Both the position numbers and the translations under genes were made by a program. From Acidobacteriota bacterium (GTDB taxonomy: Bacteria > Acidobacteriota > Thermoanaerobaculia > UBA5066 > Gp7-AA6): a stretch of DNA of 64,000 nucleotides. The stretch lies in contig JAIVJS010000075.1 of the NCBI GenBank assembly GCA_020199905.1, positions 4,521-68,520 of the forward strand, given 5' to 3'. The notes under the pieces are model-generated. The model saw only the letters and a list, made by a program, of their open reading frames with translations. It did not search any database and had not been told where the DNA came from. Of this stretch, positions 326 through 54,839 are shown one piece after another (position 1 is the first letter of the stretch; each line of letters starts with the position of its first letter).

Positions 326-334
326 GGAGGCCAC

Positions 335-20282: not shown

Positions 20283-20288
20283 GCGACG

Positions 20289-20672: not shown

Positions 20673-22568
20673 ATGAAAGACGCTCGATCGCAACGCCTCG
20701 GAAAGAGTGCGGAACGTCGTCGGCGCCGGCCGCGGTTCTCCGCGCTCCTGTTCCTTTTTCCCGTCACCGCGCTCCTCGCGGCGGCGGCCTGCAAAGGTCC
20801 CGCGCCTCCTGGAGGCGCGGGCGTCCCGGCGGCCGGTCCGGCGTCCGGGTCGGCTGGATCCATCCCCTTCCCGGAGCCCGACGAGTCCTCGTGGATCCGT
20901 CCGGCGAAGGACTTTTCGAGCAGTCGCTACAGCACGCTCGACCAGATCAAGTCCGACAACGTCGCGAATTTGAAGCTCGCGTTCACGTTTTCGACCGGCA
21001 TCAACAAGGGGCACGAAGCGGCGCCCCTCGTGGTCAACGGCACGATGTACATCGTCACGCCCTACCCGAATTACCTCTACGCGCTGGATCTGACCTCGCC
21101 GGGCGCGCCCGCGAAGTGGACCTATAAGCCGAAGACCATCCCGTCGGCCCAGGGGGTGGCATGCTGCGACGTGGTCAACCGCGGCGCCGTCTACGGGAAG
21201 GGGCGCATCTACTACAACACCCTCGACGACCAGACGGTCGCCGTGGACGCCGCGACGGGGCAGGAGGTCTGGCGCACCCGGGTCGGGGACATCAACCACG
21301 GCGAGTCGATCACGATGGCGCCGCTCCTCGTCAAAGGCAAGGTCCTCGTCGGAAACAGCGGCGGCGAGTTCGGCGTGAGAGGCTGGTTGACGGCGCTCGA
21401 CGAAGACACGGGCAAGGTCGCATGGCGCGCCTGGAGCACCGGGCCCGACAAGGACGTCCTGATCGGCTCCCGGTTCAAGCCTTTTTACGCCTCCGACCGC
21501 GGCGCCGACCTCGGAGTCTCGAGCTGGCCCGGCGACATGTGGAAGATCGGCGGAGGGACGGTGTGGGGCTGGATTTCCTATGACCCGCAGCTGAACCTGA
21601 TCTATTACGGAACGTCGAATCCGGGTCCGTGGAACCCGGACCAGCGGCCGGGCGACAACAAGTGGACGGCGGCGATCTTCGCGCGCGACCCCGACGACGG
21701 CCAGGCGGTGTGGGCCTACCAGTGGAGCCCGCACGACCTCTTCGACTACGACGGGGTCAACGAAAACGTGCTGGTCGATCTTCCGATCGGAGGCCGGACC
21801 CGCAAGACTCTCCTGAGGGCCGACCGCGACGGCTTTCTGTACGTGCTCGACCGCGAGACCGGGGAGATCATCTCCGCCACGCCGTTCGCCTACACCACGA
21901 CGCGGACGGGCGTCGATTTGAAGAGCGGCCGCCCGATCGAAGTCGCCGAGAAGACCCCGCACGTCGGCACGACGACGCGCGGGATCTGCCCCGCCGCGCC
22001 CGGGGGGAAGGACTGGCAGCCGTCCGCCTTCTCTCCGCGAACGGGCCTCCTCTACATCCCCCACAACAACCTCTGCCAGGACGAAGAGGGCGTTCAGGCG
22101 AACTACATCGAAGGAACCCCGTACGTCGGAGCGAACGTGAAGATGTACGCGGGGCCGGGCGGGCACCGGGGCGAGTTCACCGCGTGGGACCCGATCGCCG
22201 CGCGGCCCGTCTGGAAGATCAAGGAGAAGTTCCCGGCGTGGAGTGGCGCCCTGGCGACGGCCGGCGACGTCGTCTTCTACGGGACGATGGAGGGCTGGTT
22301 CCAGGCAGTGGACGCGCGGTCGGGCAAGCTCCTGTGGCGATTCAAGTGCGGCTCGGGAATCATCGGCCAGCCGATCACGTATCGCGGGCCGGACGGCAAG
22401 CAGTACGTCGCGATCCTGTCCGGCGTCGGGGGGTGGGCGGGCGCTATCGTCGCGAACAACCTCGACCCGCGCGACGGAACCGCGGCGTTGGGATTCGTCA
22501 ACGCCATGGGCGATCTCCCGACGGCGACGACCGCCGGCGGGATGCTGTACGTCTTCGCCCTGCCATGA
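20673..22568 (+). CDS. xoxF: PQQ-dependent methanol/alcohol dehydrogenase, XoxF-type (lanthanide-dependent signature)
   Basis: 631 aa, 8-bladed PQQ propeller. Vicinal disulfide GVACCDVVNRG. Metal/PQQ-site region PHDLFDYDGVNE has Asp at the position that is Ala in Ca-MxaF (DYAG). This is the known lanthanide-coordinating Asp of XoxF/PedH enzymes. Also carries the W-rich docking motifs. N-terminal export signal with RRRRRPRF. Confidence 0.9.
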   Translation: MKDARSQRLGKSAERRRRRPRFSALLFLFPVTALLAAAACKGPAPPGGAGVPAAGPASGSAGSIPFPEPDESSWIRPAKDFSSSRYSTLDQIKSDNVANLKLAFTFSTGINKGHEAAPLVVNGTMYIVTPYPNYLYALDLTSPGAPAKWTYKPKTIPSAQGVACCDVVNRGAVYGKGRIYYNTLDDQTVAVDAATGQEVWRTRVGDINHGESITMAPLLVKGKVLVGNSGGEFGVRGWLTALDEDTGKVAWRAWSTGPDKDVLIGSRFKPFYASDRGADLGVSSWPGDMWKIGGGTVWGWISYDPQLNLIYYGTSNPGPWNPDQRPGDNKWTAAIFARDPDDGQAVWAYQWSPHDLFDYDGVNENVLVDLPIGGRTRKTLLRADRDGFLYVLDRETGEIISATPFAYTTTRTGVDLKSGRPIEVAEKTPHVGTTTRGICPAAPGGKDWQPSAFSPRTGLLYIPHNNLCQDEEGVQANYIEGTPYVGANVKMYAGPGGHRGEFTAWDPIAARPVWKIKEKFPAWSGALATAGDVVFYGTMEGWFQAVDARSGKLLWRFKCGSGIIGQPITYRGPDGKQYVAILSGVGGWAGAIVANNLDPRDGTAALGFVNAMGDLPTATTAGGMLYVFALP

Positions 22569-23455
22569 CGATCCGTCGCGTCACCCCTCTTCTCTTCGCG
22601 CTCCTCCTCGGAGCCATCGCCACGCCCGCGATCGGATTTGAGCTACGTGTCTGCGCCGACCCGAACAACCTGCCCTTCTCGAACGACCGGCTCCACGGGT
22701 TCGAGAACAGGATTGCGTCCGTGCTCGCCCGCGAGATGGGAACGACCGTCCGATACACGTGGTGGGCGCAGCGACGCGGGTTCGTGCGCAACACGCTGAA
22801 GGCGGGCTTGTGCGACGTCGTCCTCGGGGTCCCGGCGGGGCTCGAGTCGGTGCTGGCCACGCGCCCGTATTACCGGTCGACCTACGTCTGGGTGTCGCGG
22901 CGCTCGCGCGAGGCTCCCGTGACGTCCTTCGACGACCCCCGCCTCGCCCGGAAAAAGATCGGCGTCCAGCTCGTCGGCGACGATTATGCGAACACGCCCC
23001 CGGCGCACGCTCTCATGCGACGGGGCCTCATCGGCAACGTGGTCGGGTTCACGCTGTACGGCGACTACTCGAAGCCCAATCCCCCCGCCCGGATTCTCGA
23101 GGCGGTGGCGGCCGGCGAGGTGGACGTCGCGCTCGTCTGGGGGCCACTCGCGGGCTACTTCGCCAGCCGCAGCGGAGGCGCGCTCCGGATCGTACCGGCT
23201 GCGCCGCCGGCCGATCTCCCGGATTTCCCTTTCGCCTTCGACATCGCGATGGGAGTCCGGCGAGGCGACAAGGACTTCAAGACCCGGCTCGATCTCGCGC
23301 TCCTTCGCCGGCGCGCGGAAATCGACCGGATTCTCGATTCGTACGGGGTTCCGCGCGTCAGGACCGCGCCCGCGCCGCGCGCCGACGTGGCAGGGCGGGC
23401 GGCAGGCGCCGACGTGGCGGCGCGGGGGCTCGCGTCCGCGGAGGCCGGGCGATGA
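22566..23455 (+). CDS. xoxJ: MxaJ/XoxJ-like periplasmic solute-binding protein (quinoprotein dehydrogenase-associated SBP family 3)
   Basis: ATG overlaps the xoxF stop (ATGA). Signal peptide MTIRRVTPLLFALLLGAIATPA. LRVCADPNNLPFSN start is typical of MxaJ/XoxJ. ~296 aa. Confidence 0.75.
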
Positions 23456-23967
23456 GAAGCAAACGGGCAGGCCGGCAGCTTCTCGTTTGCGCTGCCCTGG
23501 CGGTCCTGCCGGTCGGGTGCGACAAGCTCTCGAACTCCCTGCACCAGCCGCCCTCCGCGACCGTGCGCACCGACGCGATCGCCGTGTCCGCGCTCGAGCC
23601 CGGCGCGCGGATGCCCGGGATCGTGCACAAGAACCCGCTCGAGGGAAATCCATTCGCCATCTCCGAGGGGCAGCGGCTCTACGACTGGTACAACTGCTCC
23701 GGCTGCCACTTCCGCGGCGGAGGCGGCATCGGTCCGCCCCTGATGGACGAGTTCTGGATCTACGGCGGCAATCCCGCGAACATCTATACGACGATCGTCG
23801 AGGGGCGCCCGAACGGCATGCCCGCTTTCCGGGGAAAGATCCCCGACTATCAGCTCTGGCAGATCGTCGCCTACGTCCAGAGCATGCGCGCCGACAAGCC
23901 GATCGCGTCTCCGCCGGGTCCGCGGGAGGACCACCTGCAGGCCTCGGAAGGCAAGGAGTCGCGGTGA
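23452..23967 (+). CDS. Mono-heme c-type cytochrome (candidate XoxG-like electron acceptor of XoxF)
   Basis: ATG overlaps the xoxJ stop (ATGA). Signal/lipoprotein-like N-terminus MRSKRAGRQLLVCAALAVLPVGC. Single CxxCH (CSGCH) and downstream Met (NGMPAF) as candidate sixth ligand. 171 aa. Confidence 0.7.
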   Translation: MRSKRAGRQLLVCAALAVLPVGCDKLSNSLHQPPSATVRTDAIAVSALEPGARMPGIVHKNPLEGNPFAISEGQRLYDWYNCSGCHFRGGGGIGPPLMDEFWIYGGNPANIYTTIVEGRPNGMPAFRGKIPDYQLWQIVAYVQSMRADKPIASPPGPREDHLQASEGKESR

Positions 23968-24965
23968 GCCGGCGGAGCGGCCTGCCGGCCGCGGCCGCGG
24001 CCCTCCTCTGCGCGGCTCTCTCCGGGTGCCGGGGAATCCAGTCGTCTCTCGACCCCGCCGGCCGCGAGGCCGCGAAGATTTCCGGGCTCTGGTGGCTCTT
24101 CTTCTACGTCTGCACGGCCGTGTTCGTCCTCGTGCTCGCCTTTCTCTTCTACGGGGTCTTCCGGCGGCGTTCGGAAGACGCGCTTGGGGCGCGGGAGCGC
24201 GGCAAGACCTACGTCGCAATCGGCGCGGGCGCGACCGCGGCGATCCTCCTCCTGTTCCTGGTCGTCAGCGTTTCCGCGGGGCGGGAGATCGCGGAGCCCG
24301 CGGGACCCGACGCGCTCAAGGTGCAGGTGATCGGACACCAATGGTGGTGGGAGGTCCGGTATCCAGCGTCCCCCGCGAACCGGACGGTCGTCACCGCGAA
24401 CGAGATCCACGTGCCGGTTGGACGGCCCGTTTTCCTGGAGCTTCTCTCGGGCGACGTGATCCACAGCTTCTGGGCGCCGAACCTCCACGGGAAAAAGGAC
24501 CTCATCCCCGGGCGGATCAACAGCCACGCGTTCACCGCGAAGAAGGCCGGCGTGTTCCGAGGGCAGTGCGCCGAGTTCTGCGGCCTCCAGCATGCCCACA
24601 TGGCCTTCACGATTTTCGCGGAGACGCCGGAGCGCTACTCGGCGTGGTACGAGAAGCAGCTCGCGCCCGCCGCGGAGCCTTCGACCCCGTCGCAGGAGAG
24701 GGGACGGCAGGTCTTCGTCTCCAATTCCTGCGTCTTCTGCCATGCGATCCAGGGCACGCCCGCGTTCGGGCAGGTCGCGCCTGACCTCACGCACGTCGGC
24801 GGGCGCGGGACGCTCGCCGCCGGCAGCGTCGCGAACAATCCGGGAAACCTGGCCGGCTGGATCGCCGACCCGCAGAGCATCAAGCCCGGCAACCACATGC
24901 CGCCGATGCTGATGGCACCCGAAGACCTGCTCGCGGTGACCGACTACCTGGAGAGCTTGAAGTGA
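23964..24965 (+). CDS. ctaC: Cytochrome c oxidase subunit II with fused C-terminal cytochrome c domain (caa3-type)
   Basis: GTG overlaps the upstream stop (GTGA). Two TM helices. CuA site HSFWAPNLHGKKD...CAEFCGLQHAHM. C-terminal CVFCH heme c motif and MPPM. Confidence 0.9.
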   Translation: MSRRSGLPAAAAALLCAALSGCRGIQSSLDPAGREAAKISGLWWLFFYVCTAVFVLVLAFLFYGVFRRRSEDALGARERGKTYVAIGAGATAAILLLFLVVSVSAGREIAEPAGPDALKVQVIGHQWWWEVRYPASPANRTVVTANEIHVPVGRPVFLELLSGDVIHSFWAPNLHGKKDLIPGRINSHAFTAKKAGVFRGQCAEFCGLQHAHMAFTIFAETPERYSAWYEKQLAPAAEPSTPSQERGRQVFVSNSCVFCHAIQGTPAFGQVAPDLTHVGGRGTLAAGSVANNPGNLAGWIADPQSIKPGNHMPPMLMAPEDLLAVTDYLESLK

Positions 24966-26926
24966 AGACGTCCCGGGAGCCCGTCCGGAAGCCGCCCGCG
25001 GCCCCCGAGCCCGCGCCGCTGCCCGCCGCCCTTCCCGAAGCCGAGCTTCCGGCTCACGAGCGCGAAGAGCTGCGCCGCGCCTTCGAGACCCAGCGCGGTT
25101 TCTTCGGCTCCCTGAAGTCCGTCGACCACAAGGTGATCGGGAAGCGCTACGTGATCACCGCGCTCGTCTTCTTTGTCCTGGGCGGCATCGAAGCGATGAC
25201 GATGCGGCTGCAGCTCGCAAAGCCCGAAAACAGCCTTCTGGGCCCGGACCTGTACAACCAGGTCTTCACGATGCACGGCACGACGATGATGTTTCTGTTT
25301 GCCGTGCCGGTGATGGAAGGGCTCGCCGTCTACTTCGTCCCGCTCATGGTGGGCACCAGGAACGTCGCGTTCCCGAAGCTGAACGCCTTCGGGTACTGGA
25401 TCTATGTCCTCGGCGGCGCGTTCGTCTACGGCGGGTTCTTCTTAAACCGCGGCAACGACACGGGCTGGTTCTCCTACGTCCCGCTCTCCGGCCCGCAGTA
25501 CGCGCCGTCTCATCGCGTCGACATCTGGGCGAACATGATCACCTTCACGGAGGTGTCCGCGCTCGCGGTGGCGATCGAGATCATCGTCACGGCGTTCAAA
25601 CAGCGGGCGCCCGGCATGTCGCTGAATCGCATCCCGCTCTTCGTCTGGTCGGTCATAACGACGAATTTCATGGTCATCTTCGCCATGCCGGCCGTCATGC
25701 TCGCGAGCGGGTACCTCGCTCTCGACCGCCTCGTCGGTACCCACTTCTTCAACCCCGCCGAGGGCGGCGACCCGCTCCTGTATCAGCACCTCTTCTGGTT
25801 CTTCGGCCATCCCGAGGTCTACATCATTTTCATCCCCGCGCTCGGGATGGTCTCGACGATCCTGGCCGCCTCGACGAAGCGCCCGATCTTCGGCTACACC
25901 GCGCTCGTGCTCTCGGTGGTGGCGACGGCGTTCCTGGGCTTCGGCCTGTGGGTTCACCACATGTTCGCGACCGGGCTGCCGCAGCTCGGCGAGAGCTTCT
26001 TCACGGTGGCCAGCATGATGATCGCGATACCGAGCGGGGTGCAGATCTTCTGCTGGATACGATCGCTCTGGGGAAGCCGGCCGCGCATGACGACCCCGTT
26101 CCTGTTCGTGCTCGGCTTCTTCTTCATCTTCATCGCGGGAGGGATGACAGGGGTGATGCTCGCCTCCGTTCCCTTCAACCTCCAGGTGCACGACACGTTT
26201 TTCGTGGTGGCGCACTTCCACTACGTGCTGATCGGCGGCGCGGTCTTCCCGCTCTTTGGCGCGCTCACGTTCTGGTTTCCGAAGCTCACCGGCCGGCTGC
26301 TTTCGGAGACTCTCGGCCGCTGGACGTTTGCGGTGATGTTCGTCGGATTCAACCTAACGTTCGGCCCGATGCACTGGCTTGGCTTCCGCGGGATGCCGCG
26401 ACGCGTCTACACGTACCTGCCCGAGATGGGGTGGGGACCCGCTAATCTCGCGGCGACCATCGGGGCGGGAATGCTCGGAGTCGGCGTGCTCCTCTTCCTG
26501 ATCAACGCGGCCCGGAGCCTCCGGAGCGGCGAGGCGGCCGGCAACAATCCGTGGGGCGCGAGCACGCTCGAATGGGCGACGAGCTCGCCTCCGCCGCCCT
26601 ACAATTTCGAGCGGATCCTGGTTGTCTCGAACCGCGACCCGCTCTGGAAGCCGGAGGAGATGGCCGTTGTCACCGGGATGCGGACGGACCGCCGCGAGGT
26701 TTTGACGACCCGGCCGCTCGATGCGGAGCCGGACCACCGCGCCGTGCTCGTCGGCCCCTCGATCTGGCCGCTCTTCCTCGCGTTCGCCCTGGCGGTCGGC
26801 CTCGTAGGCTCGGTCTTCACCCCCTGGGCAATCCTCCTCAGCGGGTTCCTGTTCTTAGTCGCGATGATCGGGTGGTACTGGCCCAAGGGAGAGCCCTCCG
26901 GCCACAACGCGAGGACGGCGTCATGA
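24962..26926 (+). CDS. ctaD: Cytochrome c oxidase subunit I (heme-copper oxidase catalytic subunit)
   Basis: 654 aa. GTG overlaps the ctaC stop. 12+ TM helices. Canonical WFFGHPEVY with CuB His and Tyr. HHMF. Heme a ligands. Confidence 0.95.
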   Translation: MKTSREPVRKPPAAPEPAPLPAALPEAELPAHEREELRRAFETQRGFFGSLKSVDHKVIGKRYVITALVFFVLGGIEAMTMRLQLAKPENSLLGPDLYNQVFTMHGTTMMFLFAVPVMEGLAVYFVPLMVGTRNVAFPKLNAFGYWIYVLGGAFVYGGFFLNRGNDTGWFSYVPLSGPQYAPSHRVDIWANMITFTEVSALAVAIEIIVTAFKQRAPGMSLNRIPLFVWSVITTNFMVIFAMPAVMLASGYLALDRLVGTHFFNPAEGGDPLLYQHLFWFFGHPEVYIIFIPALGMVSTILAASTKRPIFGYTALVLSVVATAFLGFGLWVHHMFATGLPQLGESFFTVASMMIAIPSGVQIFCWIRSLWGSRPRMTTPFLFVLGFFFIFIAGGMTGVMLASVPFNLQVHDTFFVVAHFHYVLIGGAVFPLFGALTFWFPKLTGRLLSETLGRWTFAVMFVGFNLTFGPMHWLGFRGMPRRVYTYLPEMGWGPANLAATIGAGMLGVGVLLFLINAARSLRSGEAAGNNPWGASTLEWATSSPPPPYNFERILVVSNRDPLWKPEEMAVVTGMRTDRREVLTTRPLDAEPDHRAVLVGPSIWPLFLAFALAVGLVGSVFTPWAILLSGFLFLVAMIGWYWPKGEPSGHNARTAS

Positions 26927-27540: not shown

Positions 27541-27920
27541 CCGAGCGCGCGATCGCCGGCGGCGAAGCTCCTCCCGAAGCGTCGGCGGACCGGAGCCTAT
27601 GGTTCGGCATTGTCGCGCCGCCGCTCGCGTGGGCGGCCAACGAGCTCGCCGGGCTCCTCCTTCCCGACTGGGTCTGCAAGAGCGGCCACCGGTGGGTTCT
27701 CCACGCGATCACCGCGGCCGCTCTCGCGATCGCCGTTCTGGCCGGAGCGATGGCGAGCCGGTCGGCCCGGCCTTCCGAGGAGGACGCCGGCGACCCGGAG
27801 GGCCCGATCGCGAAGCGCCGGCGTTTCATGAGCCAGCTGGCCGTCATGAGCGCGCTCTTCTTCTCGCTCGTGATTGTCGCGGGAGCGGTGCCGGGCGCGA
27901 TCCACCGACCCTGCGACTGA
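27537..27920 (+). CDS. Small 3-TM membrane protein in subunit IV position of the caa3 operon (CtaF-like)
   Basis: GTG overlaps the ctaE stop (GTGA). 127 aa, three hydrophobic helices. Positional inference only. Confidence 0.45.
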   Translation: MTERAIAGGEAPPEASADRSLWFGIVAPPLAWAANELAGLLLPDWVCKSGHRWVLHAITAAALAIAVLAGAMASRSARPSEEDAGDPEGPIAKRRRFMSQLAVMSALFFSLVIVAGAVPGAIHRPCD

Positions 27921-27925
27921 CCCCC

Positions 27926-28970
27926 ATGCGCTCATCGGGCCTCGCGGACCTTCTCGCTGCCGGAGGGTGGACGTTCGATCCGGCCGTCGTCGCGCTTCTC
28001 GCGGCCTCGGGGTTCCTTTACGCGCGCGGGCTGCGTCGCCTCTGGGGCCGGGCGGGCGCGGGGGCGGGCATCTCGGTGCGTCAGGCGGCGGCGTTCGTCG
28101 GCGGCTGGGCTGCGCTCGCGGTCGCGCTCGTCTCGCCTCTGCACGCGGCCGGCGAAATCCTGTTCTCCGCCCACATGGTGCAGCACGAGCTGCTTATGCT
28201 GGTCGCCGCGCCCTTGTGCGTGATGGGACGCCCGCTGTCCGTCTTTCTCTGGGCCTTTCCCGCCGGCGCGCGCGAGGCGATCGGGGAAGCGTCGAGGGCC
28301 CGGGGGATCTCCGCCGCCTGGACGGCCGTCACGCGCCCGCTGCCCGCCTTTCTCCTCCAGAGCCTCACTCTCTGGATCTGGCATCTGCCCGCGCTCTACC
28401 AGGCGTCCCTCCGATCGGATTTCGCGCACGCCCTGCAGCACGGCAGCTTCTTCGCCGCGTCCACGGTCTTCTGGTGGGCGCTCCTTCAGGGACGGTTCGG
28501 CCGGCAGGGCTACGGAGCCGCCGCAATCGCCGTTTTCGCGACAACCCTCGAAGGCGGGGTGCTCGGCGCGCTGATCACGTTTGCCCGCTCGCTCTGGTAC
28601 CCGATCTACGAAGCGCGCACCGCGGCATGGGGGCTCTCTCCGCTCGAAGACCAGCAGCTCGCCGGGATCCTGATGTGGGTGCCGGCCGGCCTTCTCCTGG
28701 TGGGGTTCGGCCTCGCACTTTTCGCCGCCTGGCTCGGCGAGGCGGAACGGCGGGAAGGGCGTCCCGGGAGCGGATGCGAACGTCGGACCGCCGCTCGACA
28801 ACATCGCCTCCCGCGTCTACCTCGCCGGAAACCTGACGAACGAGCCCGCGCACATGATCGCGTGGATCCGCGATCCCCAGCATCTGCACGCGCCGACCGC
28901 CATGCCGAATTCCGGAGTGACGGCGCGGGACGCTAGGGACATCGCTGCGTACCTCTACACGCTCAAATGA
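27926..28970 (+). CDS. ctaG: Caa3-type cytochrome oxidase assembly factor CtaG (CopD-like), with a frameshift into a C-terminal cytochrome-c-like tail lacking CxxCH
   Basis: N-terminus MRSSGLADLLAAGGWTFDPAVVALLAASGFLYARG plus 6-7 TM helices, MVQHELLM and WHLPALYQ motifs typical of CtaG. The frame-2 ORF degenerates into low-complexity sequence after ~28760. The frame-0 continuation, with no start codon, encodes GPPLDNIASRVYLAGNLTNEPAHMIAWIRDPQHLHAPTAMPNSGVTARDARDIAAYLYTLK. This is clearly homologous to the C-terminus of ctaC (GNLAGWIADPQSIKPGNHMPP...AVTDYLESLK). Its stop at 28968-70 overlaps the next ATG. Confidence 0.55.
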
Positions 28971-29371
28971 CGGGGGCTCCCCGGCGTCCCGCGCGAGCGG
29001 CGGCCGCCCTCCTGGCTCTTGCCGCCGCCTGCCGGGCTCCGGCGGACCGGGTCCGCGATATCCGGATCTTCGCCGCTTCCTGGGCGGAGACCGTCCGCAC
29101 CACCGCCGCCGCCCGCGCCGCGGGACAGGTCCCCCGGGTGTTCGCCCGCGACACCTTCCGCGCAGCGGTGGAAGAGCTCGAAGACGCGAGGAAGAAGCTG
29201 GCGAAGCTCGCGAAAAAAAGCCCGGAAGCGGCGGAGGCCTCCCGCGCGGCGGGAAGGGCGGCCGCCGCCGTCCGATCGATCGCGGCCGGGTCCGACTCCT
29301 CGGACGTCTCGGCCGCCTCTGCCGCGCTCGCCGCTGACGCCGCTCTCCTGCGCGGAGGAGCGCGCCCGTGA
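28967..29371 (+). CDS. Hypothetical exported alpha-helical protein (possible lipoprotein)
   Basis: ATG overlaps the upstream stop. Signal MTGAPRRPARAAAALLALAAAC. Ala-rich helical 134 aa. Stop overlaps the Nramp GTG start (GTGA). Confidence 0.4.
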   Translation: MTGAPRRPARAAAALLALAAACRAPADRVRDIRIFAASWAETVRTTAAARAAGQVPRVFARDTFRAAVEELEDARKKLAKLAKKSPEAAEASRAAGRAAAAVRSIAAGSDSSDVSAASAALAADAALLRGGARP

Positions 29372-30591
29372 AAGGAGCGTTGAAGTGGCTCCTCGGCATC
29401 GTCACGAGCATCTGCGGCTTCATCGAGGTCGGCTCGATCTCGACGTCGGCGCAGGCGGGATCCGAGTTCGGCTTCCGGCTTCTCTGGGCGGTCGCGATCG
29501 CGACCGTCTGCCTCGTCTTCCTGGTCGAAATGTCCGGAAGGCTGGCGCTCGTCAGCGGCCACACGCTCGTGTCGGCGGTCCGCGAGCGCTTTGGGTTCCG
29601 GTTCCACGCGGTGCCGCTCTCGGCGGAGATCCTCCTCGACGTTCTCGTTCTCTCTGCGGAGATCGGCGGCGCGTGCGTGGCGCTCCAGCTCCTGACGGGT
29701 GTCTCCTTCCGGTGGTTTGCCCTGCCGGTCGGCCTCGCCGTCTGGGCGCTGCTCTGGTACGGCACGTTTTCGGTCATCGAGAACGGGGTCTCCGCGCTCG
29801 GGCTCGTGACGCTCGCGTTCGTGGTCGCGGCGTGGAAGGGGCATCCGGATCCGGCGGCGCTCCTGGCCGGCCTCGTGCCCTCCGCGCCGCCGGACTCCGG
29901 AAGCCTCCCCCGTTACGGGTTTCTCGCCGTCGGCATCCTCGGCGCCACGATCAGCCCGTACCTGCTCAATTTCTACTCGTCGGGAGCCGTCGAGGAGAAG
30001 TGGAGCGAGAAGGACGTGATGCCGAATCGGCTCGTCGCGGCGTTCGGTATGTCTTTCGGCAGCGTGGTGTCCGCGGGCGTCCTCGTGGTGGCCGCCCTCG
30101 TCCTCGCCCCGCGGGGCATCCACGTCGACCGGTTCGAGCAGGCGGCGCTGATGCTCCTTCCGGCGTTCCGATCGTGGGGCGTTCCTCTCTTCGCCGCGTG
30201 CCTCTTCATCGGCTGCTTCGGCGCGGCGCTCGAGATCGCGTTGAACCTCGCCTACGCGATGGCGCAGGCGTTCGGATGGAACTGGGGCGAGGACCAGCGC
30301 CCCGCGGAAGACGCGCGGTTCTGCGTCGTCTACACCGCTGCGGTTCTCGCCGGCTCCGTCATCATGACGGCGGGCCTTTCTCCCTTGAAGCTCACGCTCT
30401 TTTCGATGGCGCTGACGGTCGTCGTGCTCCCGCTGATCGTCATGCCGTTTCTCGTGCTCTTGAACGACCCGCATTACGTAAAGACTCATCGCAACGGCTG
30501 GATCGGCAATTTCGTCGTGACGTTCGTCCTCCTCCTCGGCTGCCTTCTGGCGGTCGTCGTGATTCCGCTGGAGGTGATCGGTGGCGGATGA
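29368..30591 (+). CDS. NRAMP-family divalent metal cation transporter (MntH-like)
   Basis: 407 aa, 11 TM helices. N-terminal LKWLLGIVTSICGFIEVGSISTSAQAGSEFGFRLLWAV and mid-protein GATISPYLLNFYSSG architecture typical of Nramp/MntH. Family call by overall similarity, no strict DPGN motif. Confidence 0.65.
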   Translation: MKGALKWLLGIVTSICGFIEVGSISTSAQAGSEFGFRLLWAVAIATVCLVFLVEMSGRLALVSGHTLVSAVRERFGFRFHAVPLSAEILLDVLVLSAEIGGACVALQLLTGVSFRWFALPVGLAVWALLWYGTFSVIENGVSALGLVTLAFVVAAWKGHPDPAALLAGLVPSAPPDSGSLPRYGFLAVGILGATISPYLLNFYSSGAVEEKWSEKDVMPNRLVAAFGMSFGSVVSAGVLVVAALVLAPRGIHVDRFEQAALMLLPAFRSWGVPLFAACLFIGCFGAALEIALNLAYAMAQAFGWNWGEDQRPAEDARFCVVYTAAVLAGSVIMTAGLSPLKLTLFSMALTVVVLPLIVMPFLVLLNDPHYVKTHRNGWIGNFVVTFVLLLGCLLAVVVIPLEVIGGG

Positions 30592-30955
30592 GGTGCATCT
30601 CGTCCGCGACATTCTCGACAAGCAGCTCGTCGACCGCGATCGCCGGCTCATGGGCAAAGCGGACGGCATCGTCCTGCGGATGCGCGGCAGTGGTCCTCCG
30701 GAGGTGGTCGCCATCGAAGCCGGGCCGGGCGTCCTGGCGGACCGTCTGCATCCGGGGCTCGGGCGGCGGCTCTGCGCGGCGCTCGAACGTCTCGGGAAAG
30801 ACATCGGGCAGCCTCTGCGAATCCCCTTCGCGAAGATCCTTCATCGGGGCCTGGATCTCCAGATCGACACGGACGCGCGGCGGACGAGCGCTTACGCCGC
30901 GGAACGGTGGCTCAAAGAGCGCCTGGTCCGCCGGTTCCCCGGCTCGGGAGAATGA
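30581..30955 (+). CDS. PRC-barrel domain protein
   Basis: GTG start overlapping the Nramp end by 11 nt. 124 aa, LVRDILDKQLVDRDRRLMGKADGIVLRM matches the PRC-barrel core. Confidence 0.45.
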   Translation: MADEVHLVRDILDKQLVDRDRRLMGKADGIVLRMRGSGPPEVVAIEAGPGVLADRLHPGLGRRLCAALERLGKDIGQPLRIPFAKILHRGLDLQIDTDARRTSAYAAERWLKERLVRRFPGSGE

Positions 30956-30959
30956 GACG

Positions 30960-31277
30960 ATGACCGCCGCCCGCGAAATCCGCCTGGAGCGGCTCGTCGG
31001 CCGCGAAGTGAGAGACCAGACGGGACGGGCGGTCGGGCGGCTCGAGGAAGTGCGGGCGCGCAAGAAGGGGAACGAATGGGTGGTGACCGACTGCCACATC
31101 GGCACGGCGGCGCTCGTGGAACGGCTGGCCGCGCACATCCTGAGATTCGGGACCCACGGATACCGCGCCTCGTGGGACCAGATCGACTGGTCGGACCCGG
31201 AAAAGCTGCGCCTGGCCTGTCCCCTCGAGGACCTGCGGCGGCTGACGAGCCGGGCCGCGCGCTCGCGCCGGAAATGA
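30960..31277 (+). CDS. PRC-barrel domain protein
   Basis: 105 aa. LVGREVRDQTGRAVGRLEEVRARKKGNEWVVTDCHIG PRC-barrel core. Stop overlaps the next gene ATG (ATGA). Confidence 0.5.
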   Translation: MTAAREIRLERLVGREVRDQTGRAVGRLEEVRARKKGNEWVVTDCHIGTAALVERLAAHILRFGTHGYRASWDQIDWSDPEKLRLACPLEDLRRLTSRAARSRRK

Positions 31278-32281
31278 CGCGCCGGAGCTTCTTCCATCGG
31301 CGAAGCCTCATGGTGGGCGCCGTTCTGACGGGTGTCTGCGTCGTCTCCCTCGCGGCAGCGCCGTCCGGCGCGCCGGCCGGTTTCTTTCGCGTGTACGTGA
31401 CGAACGAGCGCTCCGGCGACGTGACCGTGATCGACCCGCGAACGCGCGCGGCGATCCGCAACATCGCAGTCGGGGGCCGCCCGCGCGGGATCGCCGCCTC
31501 ACCCGACGGACGGCGCCTCTACGTGGCGATCGCCGCCAGGAATGGGGCTCCCGCCGGCATCGCGGTCATCGATGCCGCTTCCGGCCGGGTCTCGGGGAGG
31601 CTTCCATCGGGCCCCGATCCCGAGAACGTCGCCGTCACTCCGGACGGGCGGACACTGTGGATCTCCAACGAGGACGCGTCACACGCGTCGGCGGTGGATG
31701 TCAGGATCCGCCGCATTCTCGCGACCGTTCCGACGGGAGAGGAGCCGGAAGGGGTGGCCGTCTCCGCGGATGGGCGATGGGTCGCCGTCACCTCCGAGAG
31801 CGCGAGCGCCATCACGGTGATCGACGCGCGCTCGCGCCGGGCGATTCGGAAGATCCGGACGGACGCGCGGCCTCGGGCCGTGCGCTTCTCTCCCGACGGG
31901 AAGAGGGTCTACGCAACCGCGGAGATCGGGGGAAGCGTCTCCTGGATCGACACGGCCACCTGGACCGTCGGCGCGCGGCTCGTGCTTCCCGGACCGGTCA
32001 AGGCGGTCGGCGTGGCGGTCCCCCCCGACGGCCGGCGCCTCTACGTGACCACCAGCCACGCCAACGGAGTCGCCGTCGTCGATACCGAGTCCTTCTCCGT
32101 GGCGGCCACCATCCCGGTGGGCGGGCGGCCGTGGGGCATCGCGCTCTCGCCCGACGGCCGCACTCTGTTCACCGCGAACGGGACCTCGGGAGACGTCTCG
32201 GTGGTCGATCTCGCCTCCGGCCGCGCGGTGGCGGCCGTTCCCGCGGGCGACGGGCCCTGGGGCGTCGCGGTCGCGCGTTGA
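31274..32281 (+). CDS. Exported YVTN-family beta-propeller repeat protein (Tat signal)
   Basis: Twin-arginine signal MTRRSFFHRRSLMVGAV. Seven ~40-aa repeats of the type SPDGRRLYVA...VIDAASGRV (ASPDGRRLY, VTPDGRTLW, VSADGRWVAV, FSPDGKRVYA, VPPDGRRLYV, LSPDGRTLF). Confidence 0.75.
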   Translation: MTRRSFFHRRSLMVGAVLTGVCVVSLAAAPSGAPAGFFRVYVTNERSGDVTVIDPRTRAAIRNIAVGGRPRGIAASPDGRRLYVAIAARNGAPAGIAVIDAASGRVSGRLPSGPDPENVAVTPDGRTLWISNEDASHASAVDVRIRRILATVPTGEEPEGVAVSADGRWVAVTSESASAITVIDARSRRAIRKIRTDARPRAVRFSPDGKRVYATAEIGGSVSWIDTATWTVGARLVLPGPVKAVGVAVPPDGRRLYVTTSHANGVAVVDTESFSVAATIPVGGRPWGIALSPDGRTLFTANGTSGDVSVVDLASGRAVAAVPAGDGPWGVAVAR

Positions 32282-34527
32282 AAACCGCGGCGCTTCTCGC
32301 CGCGCTTCTCTTCGCGGGTCCGCGCTTCGCGCCCGGGGAGGCGGACGACGTCGCCGTCGCGGGCACCGTCCGCTCCTCGGAGGGGGCGCCGATCGAAGGC
32401 GCGCGCGTCGCTTCGCAGCCGGGCGGGCCGTCCAGCAAGACGACGACGGACGCCTCAGGCAGGTTTCTCCTTCGCGACGCCGGCGGCGCCTCCCTGCGCG
32501 TGGAGGCCGATGGATTCGAGCCCGCCCTCGTGCCGGTGCGCCCGAGCGAAGAGATTTCCGTCTGGCTGCGGCCGATTGGCGTGGCCGCAGCCGTGACCGT
32601 CACCGCTTCCCGCACTCCCCGCGAAGTGCGCGACACGCCCGCGAGCGTCGTTGTGCTGTCGTCCGACGACCTCGCCGTCTCCGCGGCCCCCGCTTCCGAC
32701 GATGCCCTGCGGAGCGTCGCGGGATTCAGCCTCTTTCGCCGGTCGGGCAGCCGCACCTCCAATCCGACCACGCAGGGCGTGTCTCTCCGCGGGACGGGAG
32801 CGAGCGGCGCCTCGCGCGCGGCGGTGCTCGAAGACGGCGTCCCGTTGAACGACCCTTTCGGAGGGTGGGTGTACTGGGGCCGCGTGCCCCTCGCGTCGCT
32901 CGACCGCGCGGAGGTCGTCCGGGGCGGCGCGTCGGAGCTCTATGGAAGTCCGGCGCTCGGAGGGGCGATCCAGCTCGTCCGCCGGGCGCCCGCCGATGCC
33001 CCGGCCCTCAGCGCCGACGTCTTCGCCGGATCGGAGAGGGCGCGGGACGCGGGCCTCTTCGCATCGTACCGGCGGGGCCTTTACGGAGCCGCCCTCGCGG
33101 GCGAGGTGTTTTCGACCGAGGGCTACGTTCCGACGGCGCCGCGGGAGAGAGGACCGGTCGACTCGGGCGCCTCTTCACGCCACGGGACGGCGGACCTGAC
33201 AGTCGAGCGGCGCGAGGCCGGGTCGCGGATCTTTCTTCGCGGGTCTCTCTTTGACGAATCGAGAGTGAACGGAACCGATCTGCAGACCAACGACGTCCGG
33301 CTCTCCGAAGGGACCGCGGGAGCGGAAGGCGTGGCGGGCGCGACCGGCGCCGCGACGTGGACGGTGCGCGCTTACGGCAGCACGCAGCGATTTCACCAGA
33401 CGTTCACCTCGATCGCCGCCGACCGGTCCTCCGAGCGCATCCTGCGGTTCCAGACGGTGCCGGCGGACGCCGTCGGGACGAGCGCCCAGCTGGCGCGCAC
33501 GCTCGGCGATCACCTCCTGGTCGCCGGCGCCGAGGCGCGCCGGGTAAAGGGCGAGAGCCGCGAGGAGGTCCCGGGAACCCCGGCCTCGTTCCTCACGGCG
33601 GGCGGCCGCGAATCGTCCGGCGCCCTGTTCGTCGAGGACGTCTTTCGCGCCGGCTCCGAATGGACGCTCACCGCCGGCGTTCGCTGGGACGCCTGGTCGG
33701 ACGACGACGCGCGGCGCGCCACCTCGGGCGGGACGACGGCCGGGACGGTGACTCGCTTTGGGCGGCGGTCGGAAACCGCGTGGAGCCCCCGGATCTCGGC
33801 TCTGTACCGCGCGAGCGGCGTCTTCTCCGTCGCGGCTTCCAGCTACCGCTCCTTCCGGGCGCCGACCTTGAACGAGCTGTACCGCTCGTTTCGCGTCGGC
33901 AACGTCTCGACCGCGGCCAACGAGGACCTGTCGCCGGAGCGTTCAACCGGCGGCGAGCTCGCGATCGCGGCGGACCTTCCCGGATCGCGCTTCCATGGGC
34001 GCGCCGCGGTTTTCTGGATGGAGATCGATGACGCGATCGGCAATCGCACGCTCACCGTGACTCCGACCGTGATCAACCGGCGCCGGGAGAACCTCGGAAC
34101 GGTCCGGGCCCGCGGAGCCGAGGCCGATGTCCAGGCGCGGTTCTATCCATGGAGCATCCGCGCCGGCTACCTCTATGCGGACTCGAGCGTGCTGTCGGCT
34201 CCCTCGGCCCCGGACCTCGCCGGGCTGCGCATTCCGCAGGTTCCGCGGCACCAGGCCACGCTGCGGGTCGAATACCGGCAGGGCGGCGGGGTCGCCGCGC
34301 TCCAGGCACGCGCCGCGGGCCGCCAATTCGAGGATGACGAGAATCGCCTGCCGTTGCGATCCTTCTGGACGGCCGATCTCTTTTTCTCCCTCGCGTTGTC
34401 CCGGGTGATCGAGCCCTACGTTGCCGTGGAAAACGTATTCGATCGCGACGTCGAGACCGGACGGACGCCCGTGACGACGCTCGGCGCGCCGCGGCAGCTG
34501 CGCATCGGAGTGAGGGTGAGAAGGTAG
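32278..34527 (+). CDS. TonB-dependent outer-membrane receptor with N-terminal carboxypeptidase-regulatory-like domain
   Basis: TTG start overlapping the YVTN stop. Signal LKTAALLAALLFAGPRFAPGEA. CarbD-like VAGTVRSSEGAPIEGARV...ASGRFLL. Plug-domain motifs (AAVLEDGVPLNDPFGGWVYW, AEVVRGGASELYGSPALGGAIQLV). Long beta-barrel with alternating hydrophobic strands to the C-terminus. Confidence 0.8.
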   Translation: MKTAALLAALLFAGPRFAPGEADDVAVAGTVRSSEGAPIEGARVASQPGGPSSKTTTDASGRFLLRDAGGASLRVEADGFEPALVPVRPSEEISVWLRPIGVAAAVTVTASRTPREVRDTPASVVVLSSDDLAVSAAPASDDALRSVAGFSLFRRSGSRTSNPTTQGVSLRGTGASGASRAAVLEDGVPLNDPFGGWVYWGRVPLASLDRAEVVRGGASELYGSPALGGAIQLVRRAPADAPALSADVFAGSERARDAGLFASYRRGLYGAALAGEVFSTEGYVPTAPRERGPVDSGASSRHGTADLTVERREAGSRIFLRGSLFDESRVNGTDLQTNDVRLSEGTAGAEGVAGATGAATWTVRAYGSTQRFHQTFTSIAADRSSERILRFQTVPADAVGTSAQLARTLGDHLLVAGAEARRVKGESREEVPGTPASFLTAGGRESSGALFVEDVFRAGSEWTLTAGVRWDAWSDDDARRATSGGTTAGTVTRFGRRSETAWSPRISALYRASGVFSVAASSYRSFRAPTLNELYRSFRVGNVSTAANEDLSPERSTGGELAIAADLPGSRFHGRAAVFWMEIDDAIGNRTLTVTPTVINRRRENLGTVRARGAEADVQARFYPWSIRAGYLYADSSVLSAPSAPDLAGLRIPQVPRHQATLRVEYRQGGGVAALQARAAGRQFEDDENRLPLRSFWTADLFFSLALSRVIEPYVAVENVFDRDVETGRTPVTTLGAPRQLRIGVRVRR

Positions 34528-54760: not shown

Positions 54761-54839
<79 letters not shown>

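Follow-up and report, generated by a model that had tools for sequence, protein, structure and literature searches.

The window, a stretch of 64,000 nucleotides from a soil Acidobacteriota genome, carries a XoxF-type dehydrogenase that, judged by its gene content, is joined with its own cytochrome c oxidase genes in a single uninterrupted array on the + strand (20673-34527; GC3 frame analysis). The array belongs to the published 'XoxF3 system'. It probably forms one operon-like unit of four pieces, encoding a path from XoxF to O2 via a non-standard oxidase. The first piece would be XoxF, a methanol dehydrogenase of the lanthanide/PQQ kind that is lipid-anchored in the window organism, with a XoxJ-like partner. 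The second would be a portable oxidase cassette comprising the lipoprotein cytochrome c g03, CtaC, CtaD, a short subunit III, the two-Cys protein g07, CtaG and a second lipoprotein cytochrome c. The third would be an inserted, autonomous four-gene module with a Nramp-related transporter, and the fourth a Tat-exported TIGR03866 propeller with a TonB-dependent receptor (TBDR), of the type that accompanies PQQ dehydrogenases. The features are listed in Table 1.

Table 1. Features of the array, with supporting matches and the junction to the following gene
Feature	Position	Strand	Evidence	Junction to next gene
Presumed promoter and 5' leader	20283..20672	.	390-nt intergenic region, only sizeable gap 5' of the array	
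g01, XoxF-type PQQ methanol/ethanol dehydrogenase, 631 aa	20673..22568	+	TIGR03075, 652.9 bits (cut-off 480)	ATGA overlap
g02, XoxJ-like periplasmic binding protein	22565..23455	+	TIGR03871 MoxJ_2, 308 bits (cut-off 212)	ATGA overlap
g03, monohaem c-type cytochrome (CSGCH), lipoprotein	23452..23967	+	Pfam Cytochrome_CBB3, 52 bits; occupies XoxG position	GTGA overlap
g04, CtaC, subunit II with C-terminal cytochrome c domain (caa3 architecture)	23964..24965	+	TIGR02866, 175.7 vs 147.7; Pfam Cytochrom_C	GTGA overlap
g05, CtaD, subunit I, A-family	24962..26926	+	TIGR02891, 694.5 vs 670.75	ATGA overlap
g06, CtaE, short subunit III, 205 aa	26923..27540	+	Pfam COX3, 33.3 bits, profile positions 151-256 of 258 only	GTGA overlap
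g07, small membrane protein, three hydrophobic segments (by eye)	27537..27920	+	Invariant Cys C47 and C126	5-nt gap
g08, CtaG, Caa3_CtaG oxidase assembly factor	27926..28750	+	Pfam PF09678, 193.6 bits, residues 31-270	To g09: frame stop at 28936, 30 nt 5' of g09
CytC, 3' two thirds of second cytochrome c	28752..28970	+	Pfam Cytochrom_C, profile positions 20-90 only	ATGA overlap
g09, Ala-rich lipoprotein	28967..29371	+	Lipobox LAAAC; first gene of Nramp module	GTGA overlap
g10, Nramp-related transporter, non-canonical metal site	29368..30591	+	Pfam Nramp, 202.6 bits	1-nt gap, or 11-nt overlap if GTG 30581 (NCBI start) is used
g11, small protein	30581..30955	+	Start 30593 or 30581; no signal peptide by eye	4-nt gap
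g12, small protein	30960..31277	+	No signal peptide by eye	ATGA overlap
g13, YVTN/YncE-type beta-propeller (TIGR03866)	31274..32281	+	Tat-like signal TRRSFF	TTGA overlap
g14, TBDR with N-terminal CarboxypepD_reg	32278..34527	+	Pfam Plug, TonB_dep_Rec_b-barrel and CarboxypepD_reg	

Array organization and conserved gene order

The first-pass annotation described near-universal 4-nt overlaps or gaps of at most 5 nt, and this was confirmed: nine of the 13 junctions are exact 4-nt overlaps, with ctaG/g09 as the sole exception. The tight packing is not a matter of chance, because the equivalent junctions overlap in relatives, by 4 or 1 nt between the cytochrome c gene and ctaC (53 of 66 loci) and by 4 nt between ctaD and ctaE (48 of 53 loci). 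Scans for sigma-70 sites and terminators detected no promoter-like sites and only weak hairpins inside the array, which is weak evidence for an Acidobacteriota genome. The upstream region contains a weak hairpin and T-tract at 20626-20643, but neither a sigma-70-like site nor a match to Rfam families. We infer an operon-like unit that would be co-transcribed on one mRNA. Pfam and NCBIfam support the gene identities proposed earlier, namely XoxF-type PQQ-ADH, MoxJ_2, cytochrome c, COX2 with cytochrome c, COX1, short COX3, Caa3_CtaG, Nramp, TIGR03866 propeller and TBDR.

The order xoxF-xoxJ-cyt c-ctaC-ctaD-ctaE-small protein-ctaG-cyt c is shared by 55 of the 57 genome loci that were informative, which span several phyla, and the synteny sought in relatives is thus present. 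Carriers include Acidobacteriota, Gemmatimonadota, Methylococcaceae, a betaproteobacterium, Mesorhizobium, Sphingomonas and Myxococcales. Candidate carriers at strain or species level are Azospirillum argentinense Az39 (plasmid p1), Mesorhizobium ciceri CC1192 (pMc1192) and Sphingomonas tabacisoli. Reciprocally, xoxF lies upstream in 31 of 32 metagenome loci chosen via CtaD, and the single exception has a divergent PQQ propeller.

The arrangement had been presented as unusual, but it is already on record. XoxF3 systems of Acidobacteria, Gemmatimonadetes and Verrucomicrobia were described by Voutsinos et al. 2024 (BMC Biol 22:41, PMC10875860; preprint 2022), with the same content and order (XoxF3, XoxJ, 'XoxG', CoxII/I/III, a '~110-aa hypothetical' equivalent to g07, CtaG, CytC) and the same tail (three small hypotheticals around NRAMP, YncE propeller, TonB receptor); no architectural differences from the window were found. 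The NRAMP was read there as a candidate lanthanide transporter, and a 2014 mini-review, as quoted there (ref. 11), reports cox and ctaG in a few xoxF3 operons. That paper does not take up electron flow, the changes in the proton channels, the pairing of the cassette with YdeP or the autonomy of the Nramp module. The explanation of the ctaG frameshift by an assembly deletion of ~250 nt is also added here. Reference 11 of Voutsinos et al. 2024 is presumably Keltjens et al. 2014.

Dehydrogenase, cytochrome and oxidase

XoxF (g01) is 100% identical to a protein from a Thermoanaerobaculia MAG. Its top PDB match is XoxF2 4MAE (685 bits), with which 'DYDG', the vicinal CC and the remaining Ln/PQQ ligands align. 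It is a predicted lipoprotein with the lipobox LLAAAAC followed by a Pro/Gly/Ala tether, and lipoboxes are found on many XoxF proteins. The partner protein g02 scored 151 bits against TIGR03870 MoxJ, below the cut-off of 258. The name XoxG suits g03 by position only; g03 falls short of the cytochrome cL/XoxG family model (TIGR03872, 34.8 bits vs cut-off 147.8), and the resemblance is instead to CcoP haem domains, the nearest PDB matches (65 bits; cytochrome cL only 32 bits). A lipobox is present in 105 of 126 g03 homologues, and the gene invariably lies immediately 5' of ctaC in the loci compared.

Canonical xoxFGJ/mxaFJGI clusters of Proteobacteria (e.g. Methylorubrum extorquens) resemble the array in combining a PQQ dehydrogenase that has the Ln-binding Asp with a MoxJ-family protein and a neighbouring c-type cytochrome. 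In contrast to these, g03 is outside the cL/XoxG family, the terminal oxidase genes stand within the array itself, and the window has neither a lut-type ABC transporter nor lanmodulin. A separate cytochrome cH step would be unneeded, because subunit II has its own haem c.

CtaC carries the lipobox LSGC, and its top PDB match is the Thermus caa3 subunit II (2YEV_B, full-length alignment, 178 bits). Across 135 CtaC homologues there is no or almost no variation in the CuA ligands, the Mg-site Glu, CxxCH and the Met (Cys2 and Met are kept in 134). The K-channel entry Glu (E101 position) is Val in g04 and in 122 of these homologues, and non-acidic in all 135. CtaD retains each of the six His ligands together with E285 and Y287, but has Q361 for the K-channel Lys, N134 for the D-channel Asp and V123 for N121. 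All 132 CtaD homologues have Gln at the K362 position, and 93 of them have Asn at the D132 position; the N121 position is hydrophobic, while the equivalents of E286, Y288 and N139 and all haem/CuB ligands are kept; in canonical A-family subunit I sequences the K-channel Lys is present. These substitutions mark a broad clade, to which ~840-aa I+III fusions from Pseudomonas mendocina, Martelella, Hoeflea, Actinomycetota and Gemmatimonadota also belong.

By these alignments the oxidase is a distinct A-family lineage, with the K-channel Lys and Glu missing and the D-channel Asp mostly missing. The earlier label of a caa3 oxidase holds in so far as the genes encode a complete cytochrome c oxidase of A-type that has a cytochrome c domain fused to it; since the proton-input channels are altered, the enzyme is not a textbook caa3. 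The Thermus thermophilus caa3 (2YEV) shares the fused cytochrome c on subunit II and the A-family subunit I, but its subunit II keeps the K-channel entry Glu ('LEVVWT') where g04 has Val, and its subunits I and III are fused, whereas in the window they are separate and III is short. With these channel residues missing, proton uptake and pumping probably differ from those of a standard caa3. Replacement of the K-channel Lys by Gln inactivates canonical enzymes (bo3 and aa3 mutagenesis), and normal oxidase turnover is therefore not to be assumed.

The same substitutions, and the breadth of the clade that they mark, would also suit an O2 reductase that turns over slowly, does not pump or is gated in another way, in place of an energy-conserving proton pump. 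Such an enzyme would be an electron sink, serving for instance in detoxification or in the redox balance of alcohol or formaldehyde oxidation in the periplasm. This is a serious but unlikely alternative, as E286, Y288, N139 and all metal ligands have kept equivalents, and B-family oxidases are functional without a Lys in the K-analogue channel.

The small protein g07 gave no family matches in Pfam and NCBIfam profile searches. In 67 loci it is conserved with subunit III on one side and CtaG on the other; both Cys are invariant, and the protein is a candidate for an additional oxidase subunit or assembly factor.

In the preferred reading of a XoxF-to-O2 path, XoxF, on the outer side of the cytoplasmic membrane, would oxidise methanol or else a similar alcohol or aldehyde. 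Electrons would pass from XoxF to the tethered g03 and on to CtaC (first its haem c, then CuA), and from there through the low-spin haem and the haem-CuB centre to O2, bypassing the quinone pool and the bc1 complex. The electron partners, the substrate and the metal are inferred. XoxF3 of Methylocella silvestris is barely expressed and has no lanthanide response, which counts against this mechanism. A similar case is the rus operon of Acidithiobacillus ferrooxidans (cyc2-cyc1-cup-coxBACD-rus), in which a substrate-specific periplasmic electron path is encoded with its own aa3-type oxidase and for which co-transcription and induction are proven (PMC2754497). It differs in its Fe2+ substrate, its carriers (outer-membrane cytochrome and rusticyanin) and its oxidase lineage.

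Modularity of the cassette and of the downstream genes

The cassette is not dedicated to XoxF, as had been assumed. On rhizobial plasmids (Mesorhizobium japonicum, Rhizobium sp. NXC24, R. leguminosarum) it follows a signal-less FdhF/YdeP molybdoenzyme, and its CtaD is 61-63% identical and shares the GTRN and Q motifs. The cassette is thus modular rather than XoxF-exclusive, and, as FdhF/YdeP is a cytoplasmic enzyme, linkage need not imply direct electron transfer. The plasmid neighbourhoods contain Hsp20, ferritin-like, Mn-catalase, Ku/LigD and PrkA/SpoVR genes. Both observations favour co-regulation over a private wire: the cassette would be an auxiliary terminal oxidase, possibly of stress or stationary phase, fed by the general cytochrome c pool and recruited beside various dehydrogenases, XoxF being one of several co-expressed genes. 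A Methylocystis preprint points the same way, with one XoxF, caa3 subunits and an Nramp up under pH stress (co-location not shown). Co-regulation in place of a direct path is nevertheless rather improbable, as the cassette is almost never seen without a PQQ dehydrogenase in soil Acidobacteriota and Gemmatimonadota, and g03 is codon-overlapped with ctaC directly after xoxF/xoxJ. Co-regulation and direct electron transfer can also both hold.

The proposed metal-uptake tail turned out to be composite: the Nramp module is autonomous, and only the TIGR03866 propeller and the TBDR resemble PQQ-dehydrogenase accessories. The lipoprotein-Nramp-g11-g12 unit occurs in cyanobacteria without XoxF or oxidase, where weak homologues of g09 (no family matches in profile searches) hold the equivalent position. 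It thus appears as an autonomous four-gene module inserted in the array, and its standing alone in cyanobacteria weakens the lanthanide-uptake reading. The closest structure to g10 is the Mg2+ transporter EleNRMT of Eggerthella lenta (7QIA, 117 bits), which, like g10, has neither the DPGN nor the MPH motif of Mn2+/Fe2+ Nramps. In their place g10 has GF(L/I/V)E(V/I/A)GS and GA(T/S)x(S/T)PY, both kept in nearly all of 16 cluster-linked homologues; the most divergent of these (L048) departs from both. The g10 site reads Glu-x-Gly-Ser and Ser-Pro-Tyr, vs Asp-Ala-Gly-Gly and Ala-Pro-Trp in EleNRMT, and g10, unlike EleNRMT, is always accompanied by the lipoprotein and the two small proteins.

The PRC-barrel assignment of these small proteins is unproven, but both are possibly PRC-barrel-like. 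Pfam PRC is sub-threshold for g12 (16 bits vs 21.2) and matches five of 12 members of its family (best E-value 7.6e-4). Pfam gave no match for g11, a distant paralogue of g12 (hhalign probability 92.6%); two of its homologues bear the JGI name 'YlmC with PRC-barrel domain', and its AF2 model (pLDDT 59) has no significant fold matches. As signal peptides were not seen, g11 and g12 are probably cytoplasmic.

Of 80 genome loci, 41 have a g13-type propeller close to xoxF, downstream or divergently upstream. The receptor g14 did not reach equivalog cut-offs (PqqU, 66 vs 1200). In the lut cluster of M. extorquens AM1 (LutH TBDR, ABC transporter LutAEF, periplasmic LutB/C/D/G; PMC7391723) a TonB-dependent receptor and exported accessory proteins are also found near a PQQ/Ln dehydrogenase system, but the window array has no ABC transporter.

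Second cytochrome c and local assembly deletion

The first-pass annotation counted 14 genes; they are co-directional and tightly packed as claimed, but the true number is 15, the second cytochrome c gene having been damaged by an assembly deletion. The coding signal changes frame at about 28740-28755 (GC3 frame analysis), the true 3' end of ctaG is missing, and its ORF continues out of frame. That the whole array is a chimeric assembly joining unrelated regions is extremely improbable, and for the gene order this reading is taken as already refuted by comparison: the local defect at about 28750 is real, and the contigs of two further public assemblies from this population (L170, L171) stop there, but the order across this junction recurs in independent relatives (L001, L009, L028, L030, L090, L092, L094, L101, L111, L139), composition is uniform across the region, and the conserved linkage therefore rules out chimerism as well as missing synteny.

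From 28752 onward L170 and L171 are identical to the window, and both encode, just 3' of their contig ends, an intact 137-aa lipoprotein cytochrome c ('SAAGC...YGCGSCHHIKGVPGADANVGPPL...') with CGSCH. The apparent ctaG frameshift therefore reflects a deletion of ~250 nt in the window assembly, which accounts for the missing signal/lipobox and CxxCH haem site of the second cytochrome c. In L001 the second cytochrome c is fused to CtaG.

Layout of the array and an assembly defect

The G+C content of the window is approximately 68%, which makes raw ORF lists useless, and the array was delimited by third-position GC frame analysis together with a check of every stop codon. It runs without break on the plus strand, from xoxF (g01), an xoxJ-like gene (g02) and a cytochrome c gene (g03) through ctaC (g04), ctaD (g05), ctaE (subunit III, g06), a two-Cys membrane protein (g07) and ctaG (g08) to a lipoprotein (g09), an Nramp-related transporter (g10), two small proteins (g11, g12), a propeller protein (g13) and a TonB-dependent receptor (TBDR, g14). 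Nine of the 13 junctions are 4-nt ATGA, GTGA or TTGA overlaps, and three are gaps of 1-5 nt. The remaining one, ctaG/g09, differs: the ctaG frame is open to 28936, 30 nt short of g09, while coding signal in another frame from about 28752 represents the C-terminal part of a second cytochrome c, whose frame stops at 28970 in an ATGA overlap with g09.

Downstream of 28752 the window sequence is identical to that of two further public assemblies from the same population (L170 and L171), in which the lipoprotein cytochrome c of 137 aa is intact and has a CGSCH motif. The window therefore carries an assembly deletion of about 250 nt, which takes away the signal/lipobox and the CxxCH of the 137-aa protein and gives the apparent frameshift; the true array holds 15 genes. 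Both contigs terminate just upstream of the second cytochrome c, which marks the ctaG/cytochrome c junction as a hard-to-assemble spot. A frameshift or pseudogene at the 3' end of ctaG was dropped in view of the intact gene and these contig ends. In the closest relative (L001) the second cytochrome c is fused to CtaG. The co-directional, tightly packed array described in the first-pass annotation is accurate apart from this junction, which it missed.

Overlaps recur at the same junctions in the compared loci of relatives. A scan for consensus promoters and terminators, of a kind uninformative for this phylum, found nothing convincing within the array. Because of the junction overlaps and the absence of convincing internal signals, the array is probably co-transcribed. 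Upstream of the array and of the Nramp modules, no riboswitch was found by an Rfam scan. The sole sigma-70-like site of the scanned region lies just before the cytochrome b gene that follows the array.

Coordinates of features in the window and in the compared loci (L-numbers)
Feature	Position	Strand	Remark
BNR/Sortilin-Vps10 repeat protein	266-3415		~1050 aa
BNR/Sortilin-Vps10 repeat protein	17136-20282		~1050 aa; directly upstream of the xox array
Possible ~62-aa ORF (MQERRSKIVRGPRGIRIDPPDLERLPELS...)	20366-20555	minus	in the gap upstream of xoxF; could be spurious
Array, xoxF to TBDR	20673-34527	plus
Subunit II (CtaC)	23964-24965	plus	channel residue V84
Subunit I (CtaD)	24962-26926	plus	channel residues Q361, N134, V123
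g07, two-Cys membrane protein	27537-27920	plus
~250-nt assembly deletion	28740-28755		against L170:1-458 and L171:1-458
Sigma-70-like site	34612-34640
Succinate-dehydrogenase-type cytochrome b (b558 family, below cut-off), then Ser/Thr kinase with GAF domain	34629-36926		~100 nt after TBDR
tRNA gene	54764-54837	minus	Rfam RF00005, 75 bits
Metagenome locus without xoxF; divergent PQQ-propeller and Gfa-like genes upstream of the cassette	L158:2099-4615
~235-aa 'heme-binding protein' gene	L164:3892-4596		directly upstream of PQQ dehydrogenase
~235-aa 'heme-binding protein' gene	L165:12752-13543		directly upstream of PQQ dehydrogenase
Stand-alone lipoprotein-Nramp-g11-g12, Fischerella sp. JS2	L167:8564-10918
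Stand-alone lipoprotein-Nramp-g11-g12, Gloeothece verrucosa	L168:8582-10938

Conservation, precedent and portability of the gene cluster

Genomes were scanned with XoxF, using one genome per GTDB species, which gave 80 loci; the 57 with at least 4.5 kb downstream of xoxF were counted for synteny. In 55 of these ctaD follows on the same strand, and the full conserved order is xoxF-(xoxJ)-cyt c-ctaC-ctaD-ctaE-(g07)-ctaG-cyt c. Carriers belong to Thermoanaerobaculia, Blastocatellia/Pyrinomonadaceae, Bryobacteraceae, Acidobacteriaceae, Gemmatimonadaceae and Longimicrobium, and further include a Methylococcaceae genome, a betaproteobacterium, Mesorhizobium, Sphingomonas tabacisoli and a Myxococcales MAG. 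When metagenomes were scanned reciprocally, with CtaD, xoxF lay upstream in 31 of the 32 loci having enough upstream DNA, one of the 31 being a distant PQQ dehydrogenase. The exception (L158) carries, upstream of the cassette, a divergent PQQ-propeller gene and a Gfa-like (glutathione-dependent formaldehyde-activating) gene. The first-pass annotation had called for a synteny search and allowed for assembly chimerism should relatives lack the order; the counts from both scans exclude this. A gene for a ~235-aa 'heme-binding protein', absent from the window, occurs in rhizobial xoxF-linked clusters and an Acidobacteriaceae cluster (L164, L165, L074, L079, L044); it stands directly upstream of the PQQ dehydrogenase, except in L044, where it follows the second cytochrome c.

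The arrangement of xoxF and oxidase genes is already published as the XoxF3 system, and the finding is a rediscovery. The cluster of Voutsinos et al. comprises XoxF3, XoxJ, XoxG, CoxI/II/III, a hypothetical protein of ~110 aa between CoxIII and CtaG, CtaG and CytC, as well as three small hypotheticals around NRAMP, a YncE propeller and a TonB receptor (PMC10875860). The window contains all of these elements in that order. What had been put forward as an unusual, self-contained respiratory module was observed correctly and is partly supported in its interpretation, but it is not new. A passage in the same paper credits an earlier mini-review with the identification of cox and ctaG within xoxF3 operons; electron flow is not discussed (PMC10875860). 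By then no XoxF3 enzyme had been biochemically characterised and no XoxF3 system studied experimentally, and in the weathered granite and soil studied XoxF3 was more abundant than any other type of methanol dehydrogenase (PMC10875860). Expression data for XoxF3 are sparse: it is nearly silent in Methylocella silvestris and induced by Ce in Methylosinus trichosporium OB3b.

The oxidase cassette (the g03-like cytochrome c, ctaC, ctaD, ctaE, g07, ctaG and the second cytochrome c) also occurs on plasmids: a protein search of these gave 83 records whose CtaD is 60-66% identical. It is linked to xoxF on p1 of Azospirillum argentinense Az39, on pMc1192 of Mesorhizobium ciceri CC1192 and, in rearranged order, on a plasmid of Bradyrhizobium sp. 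195. The same overlapping cassette stands behind an FdhF/YdeP gene in M. japonicum MAFF303099 (pMLb, L161), Rhizobium sp. NXC24 (L162) and R. leguminosarum CB782 (L166); the FdhF/YdeP-family molybdoenzyme of these rhizobial plasmids has 800 aa and lacks a signal peptide. These YdeP-linked copies show that the cassette is portable and not exclusive to XoxF. They overturned the exclusive association of this oxidase clade with xoxF suggested by the metagenome scan, the sample of which was biased to soil taxa; no YdeP was seen among the soil loci. A literature search for the YdeP-oxidase linkage gave nothing pertinent, which does not prove that it is undescribed. The plasmid surroundings of the YdeP cassettes are rich in stress-type genes (Hsp20, ferritin-like, Ku/LigD, PrkA/SpoVR), and in M. 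ciceri (L164) the cassette linked to xoxF is adjoined by a Mn-catalase gene.

The dehydrogenase and the oxidase

The product of g01 is predicted to be an XoxF-type lanthanide PQQ dehydrogenase. It scores 652.9 bits against the PQQ methanol/ethanol dehydrogenase model TIGR03075 (cut-off 480) and 207.8 bits against Pfam PQQ. Alignment with XoxF2 (4MAE) shows that the lanthanide-coordinating Asp is kept (D-Y-D, not D-Y-A; 'FDYDGVNE'), as are 'VACCDVVNRG' with its vicinal Cys-Cys, 'GESIT' and 'GTSNPG' (Glu/Asn/Asp ligands). An exact-sequence lookup of g01 gave no match, despite the NCBI protein of the same length and 100% identity that the homologue search found in a Thermoanaerobaculia (Acidobacteriota) MAG. 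The nearest solved structure is XoxF2 (685 bits), with XoxF5 at 584 and 562 bits. Identities of 65-80% to Acidobacteriota and Gemmatimonadota proteins in XoxF3-defining gene context suggest, together with that context, placement in XoxF clade 3. The g02 product reaches the quinoprotein dehydrogenase-associated MoxJ_2 model TIGR03871 (308 vs 212) and falls below the strict MoxJ equivalog TIGR03870 (151 vs 258). The g03 product is a monohaem cytochrome c well under the cytochrome cL/XoxG model TIGR03872 (34.8 vs 147.8), and in the PDB it matches CcoP haem domains (65 bits) and cytochrome cL (32 bits); it would be named XoxG by position only.

By Pfam and NCBIfam, g04, g05 and g06 encode subunit II with a fused cytochrome c domain, subunit I and a short subunit III. 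Scores are 175.7 vs 147.7 for g04 (TIGR02866; best PDB match Thermus caa3, 2YEV_B) and 694.5 vs 670.75 for g05 (TIGR02891), and the ligands and the fused CxxCH identify an A-family haem-copper oxidase of caa3 architecture. Across 132 CtaD homologues there is no variation in the haem and CuB ligands (six His), the GHPEVY Glu or the cross-link Tyr; across 135 CtaC homologues there is none, or next to none (134/135 at two positions), in the CuA ligands, the Mg-site Glu or the haem c ligands. The caa3 oxidase named in the first-pass annotation is therefore present with its CuA, haem ligands and fused cytochrome c domain, but its K- and D-channels are non-canonical. Gln occupies the helix VIII Lys position in all 132 CtaD homologues, and the K-channel entry Glu of subunit II is replaced by Val in 122/135 CtaC homologues and by non-acidic residues in the rest. 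At the D-channel entrance, the Asp position, which follows an almost invariant Arg, holds Asn in 93/132 and Asp in only 15/132; the N121 position is L, I or V in 125/132 and Thr in the rest, while the N139 position is kept in 114/132.

A whole-library search showed that the Lys-to-Gln change and the hydrophobic N121 position mark a broad clade at 42-60% identity, mostly of ~840-aa I+III fusions and including Pseudomonas mendocina, Martelella, Hoeflea, Actinomycetota and Gemmatimonadota; at 46% identity or less the canonical pattern reappears. A literature search for this lineage likewise gave nothing pertinent and is no proof of its being undescribed. The g08 product is Caa3_CtaG (PF09678, 193.6 bits vs 27.7) and reaches only 64 vs 279 against the Bacillus-type equivalog TIGR02737. 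No family match was found for g07 in Pfam or NCBIfam; its two Cys, C47 and the C-terminal C126, are invariant in 67 homologues, which suggests a metal or redox role. The array showed neither ctaA nor ctaB.

A lipobox is present on the g03 cytochrome in 105/126 loci, and also on CtaC, the second cytochrome c and XoxF (in the window organism and many others). The best-supported arrangement is a membrane-tethered chain in which electrons would pass from XoxF to the g03 cytochrome, the haem c of CtaC, CuA, the binuclear centre and O2; the electron partners and substrate of this chain, as well as its energy yield, are our deductions. The rus operon of A. ferrooxidans is analogous in logic. If the dehydrogenase is wired to its own oxidase, soil Acidobacteriota and Gemmatimonadota would respire methanol or related volatiles with the quinone pool bypassed, and so short a methanol chain would bear on soil methanol sinks and on the energy yield of such oxidations.

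Two other explanations stay alive in view of the altered channels and the YdeP-linked cassettes. The oxidase may be a non-pumping sink, which we consider fairly unlikely. That xoxF and the oxidase are co-regulated, with no private wire between them, appears unlikely beside the tethered chain.

Metal-related genes and surroundings

The g10 product belongs to the SLC11 fold family (Pfam PF01566, 202.6 bits) and is far under the MntH models (93.5 vs 430). In place of the canonical Nramp motifs DPGN (TM1) and A-x-x-MPH (TM6) it has IEVGS and ISPY; Glu-x-Gly-Ser and Ser-Pro-Tyr are kept almost throughout the 16 cluster-linked homologues, one (L048) departing from both. The nearest solved structure is the Mg2+ transporter EleNRMT, and the predicted all-oxygen ligand set fits a hard cation without identifying which. 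Homologues of 60-62% identity are abundant in Nostocales and other cyanobacteria, where Fischerella sp. JS2 and Gloeothece verrucosa carry the four genes lipoprotein-Nramp-g11-g12 on their own, with the order and overlaps of the window and without XoxF or oxidase. In Rhizobium sp. NXC24 they adjoin the YdeP-linked cassette, and they occur in only 6 of the 80 XoxF loci of the genome scan. The four genes are an autonomous module, whose presence alone in cyanobacteria and beside a YdeP cassette weakens a lanthanide-specific reading of the transporter. Of the metal-uptake tail proposed at first, the Nramp-family gene and the TBDR are present, but the module is autonomous and its link to lanthanides is unsupported; caution is advised with the published suggestion of NRAMP lanthanide import.

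The g11 and g12 products are distant paralogues (hhalign 92.6%). Against PRC-barrel PF05239, g12 scores a sub-threshold 16 bits vs 21.2 and five of its 12 homologues match weakly (best E-value 7.6e-4); g11 has no match, and two of its homologues bear a JGI PRC-barrel name. Low-confidence AF2 models (g11 pLDDT 59, from a 20-sequence alignment; g12 pLDDT 53, from a single sequence) gave no significant fold in Foldseek, the top match being the reaction-centre H subunit (E=0.94). PRC-barrel is thus a candidate assignment, drawn only from the sub-threshold matches, the two JGI names and the insignificant fold match. The propeller (g13) marginally exceeds the curated cut-off of TIGR03866 (288.7 vs 287.3). 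In the genome scan a propeller gene lies downstream or divergent in 41/80 XoxF loci and a TBDR gene in 13/80, and both are parts more typical of PQQ-dehydrogenase neighbourhoods. The TBDR (g14) has Plug and barrel domains (Pfam) and reaches no substrate-specific equivalog (PqqU, 66 vs 1200). Candidate cargoes are a lanthanide chelate, as imported by LutH (PMC7391723), or PQQ.

Read jointly, these results tentatively place the real novelty in the oxidase half: a widespread, apparently uncharacterised A-family lineage, lacking the K-channel Lys/Glu and, in the subclade found here, the D-channel Asp, would form a portable cassette behind XoxF3-type PQQ or FdhF/YdeP enzymes, often joined by the autonomous Nramp module. 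If this is true, the private electron sink of XoxF3 systems would be an oxidase of unusual mechanism, its proton uptake or pumping being altered, and the Nramp module would serve the oxidase or the cell and not lanthanide supply. It is this atypical and portable oxidase lineage that deserves to be followed, and its unusual proton channels merit biochemical study. Cultured, genetically tractable carriers are Azospirillum argentinense Az39, Mesorhizobium ciceri CC1192, Bradyrhizobium sp. 195, Sphingomonas tabacisoli and Mesorhizobium spp.

No PQQ-biosynthesis or formaldehyde-oxidation genes were found among the other window genes scanned. Housekeeping genes elsewhere in the window encode MetRS, a glycosyltransferase, an RND efflux system, ABC permeases and an amino-acid permease.
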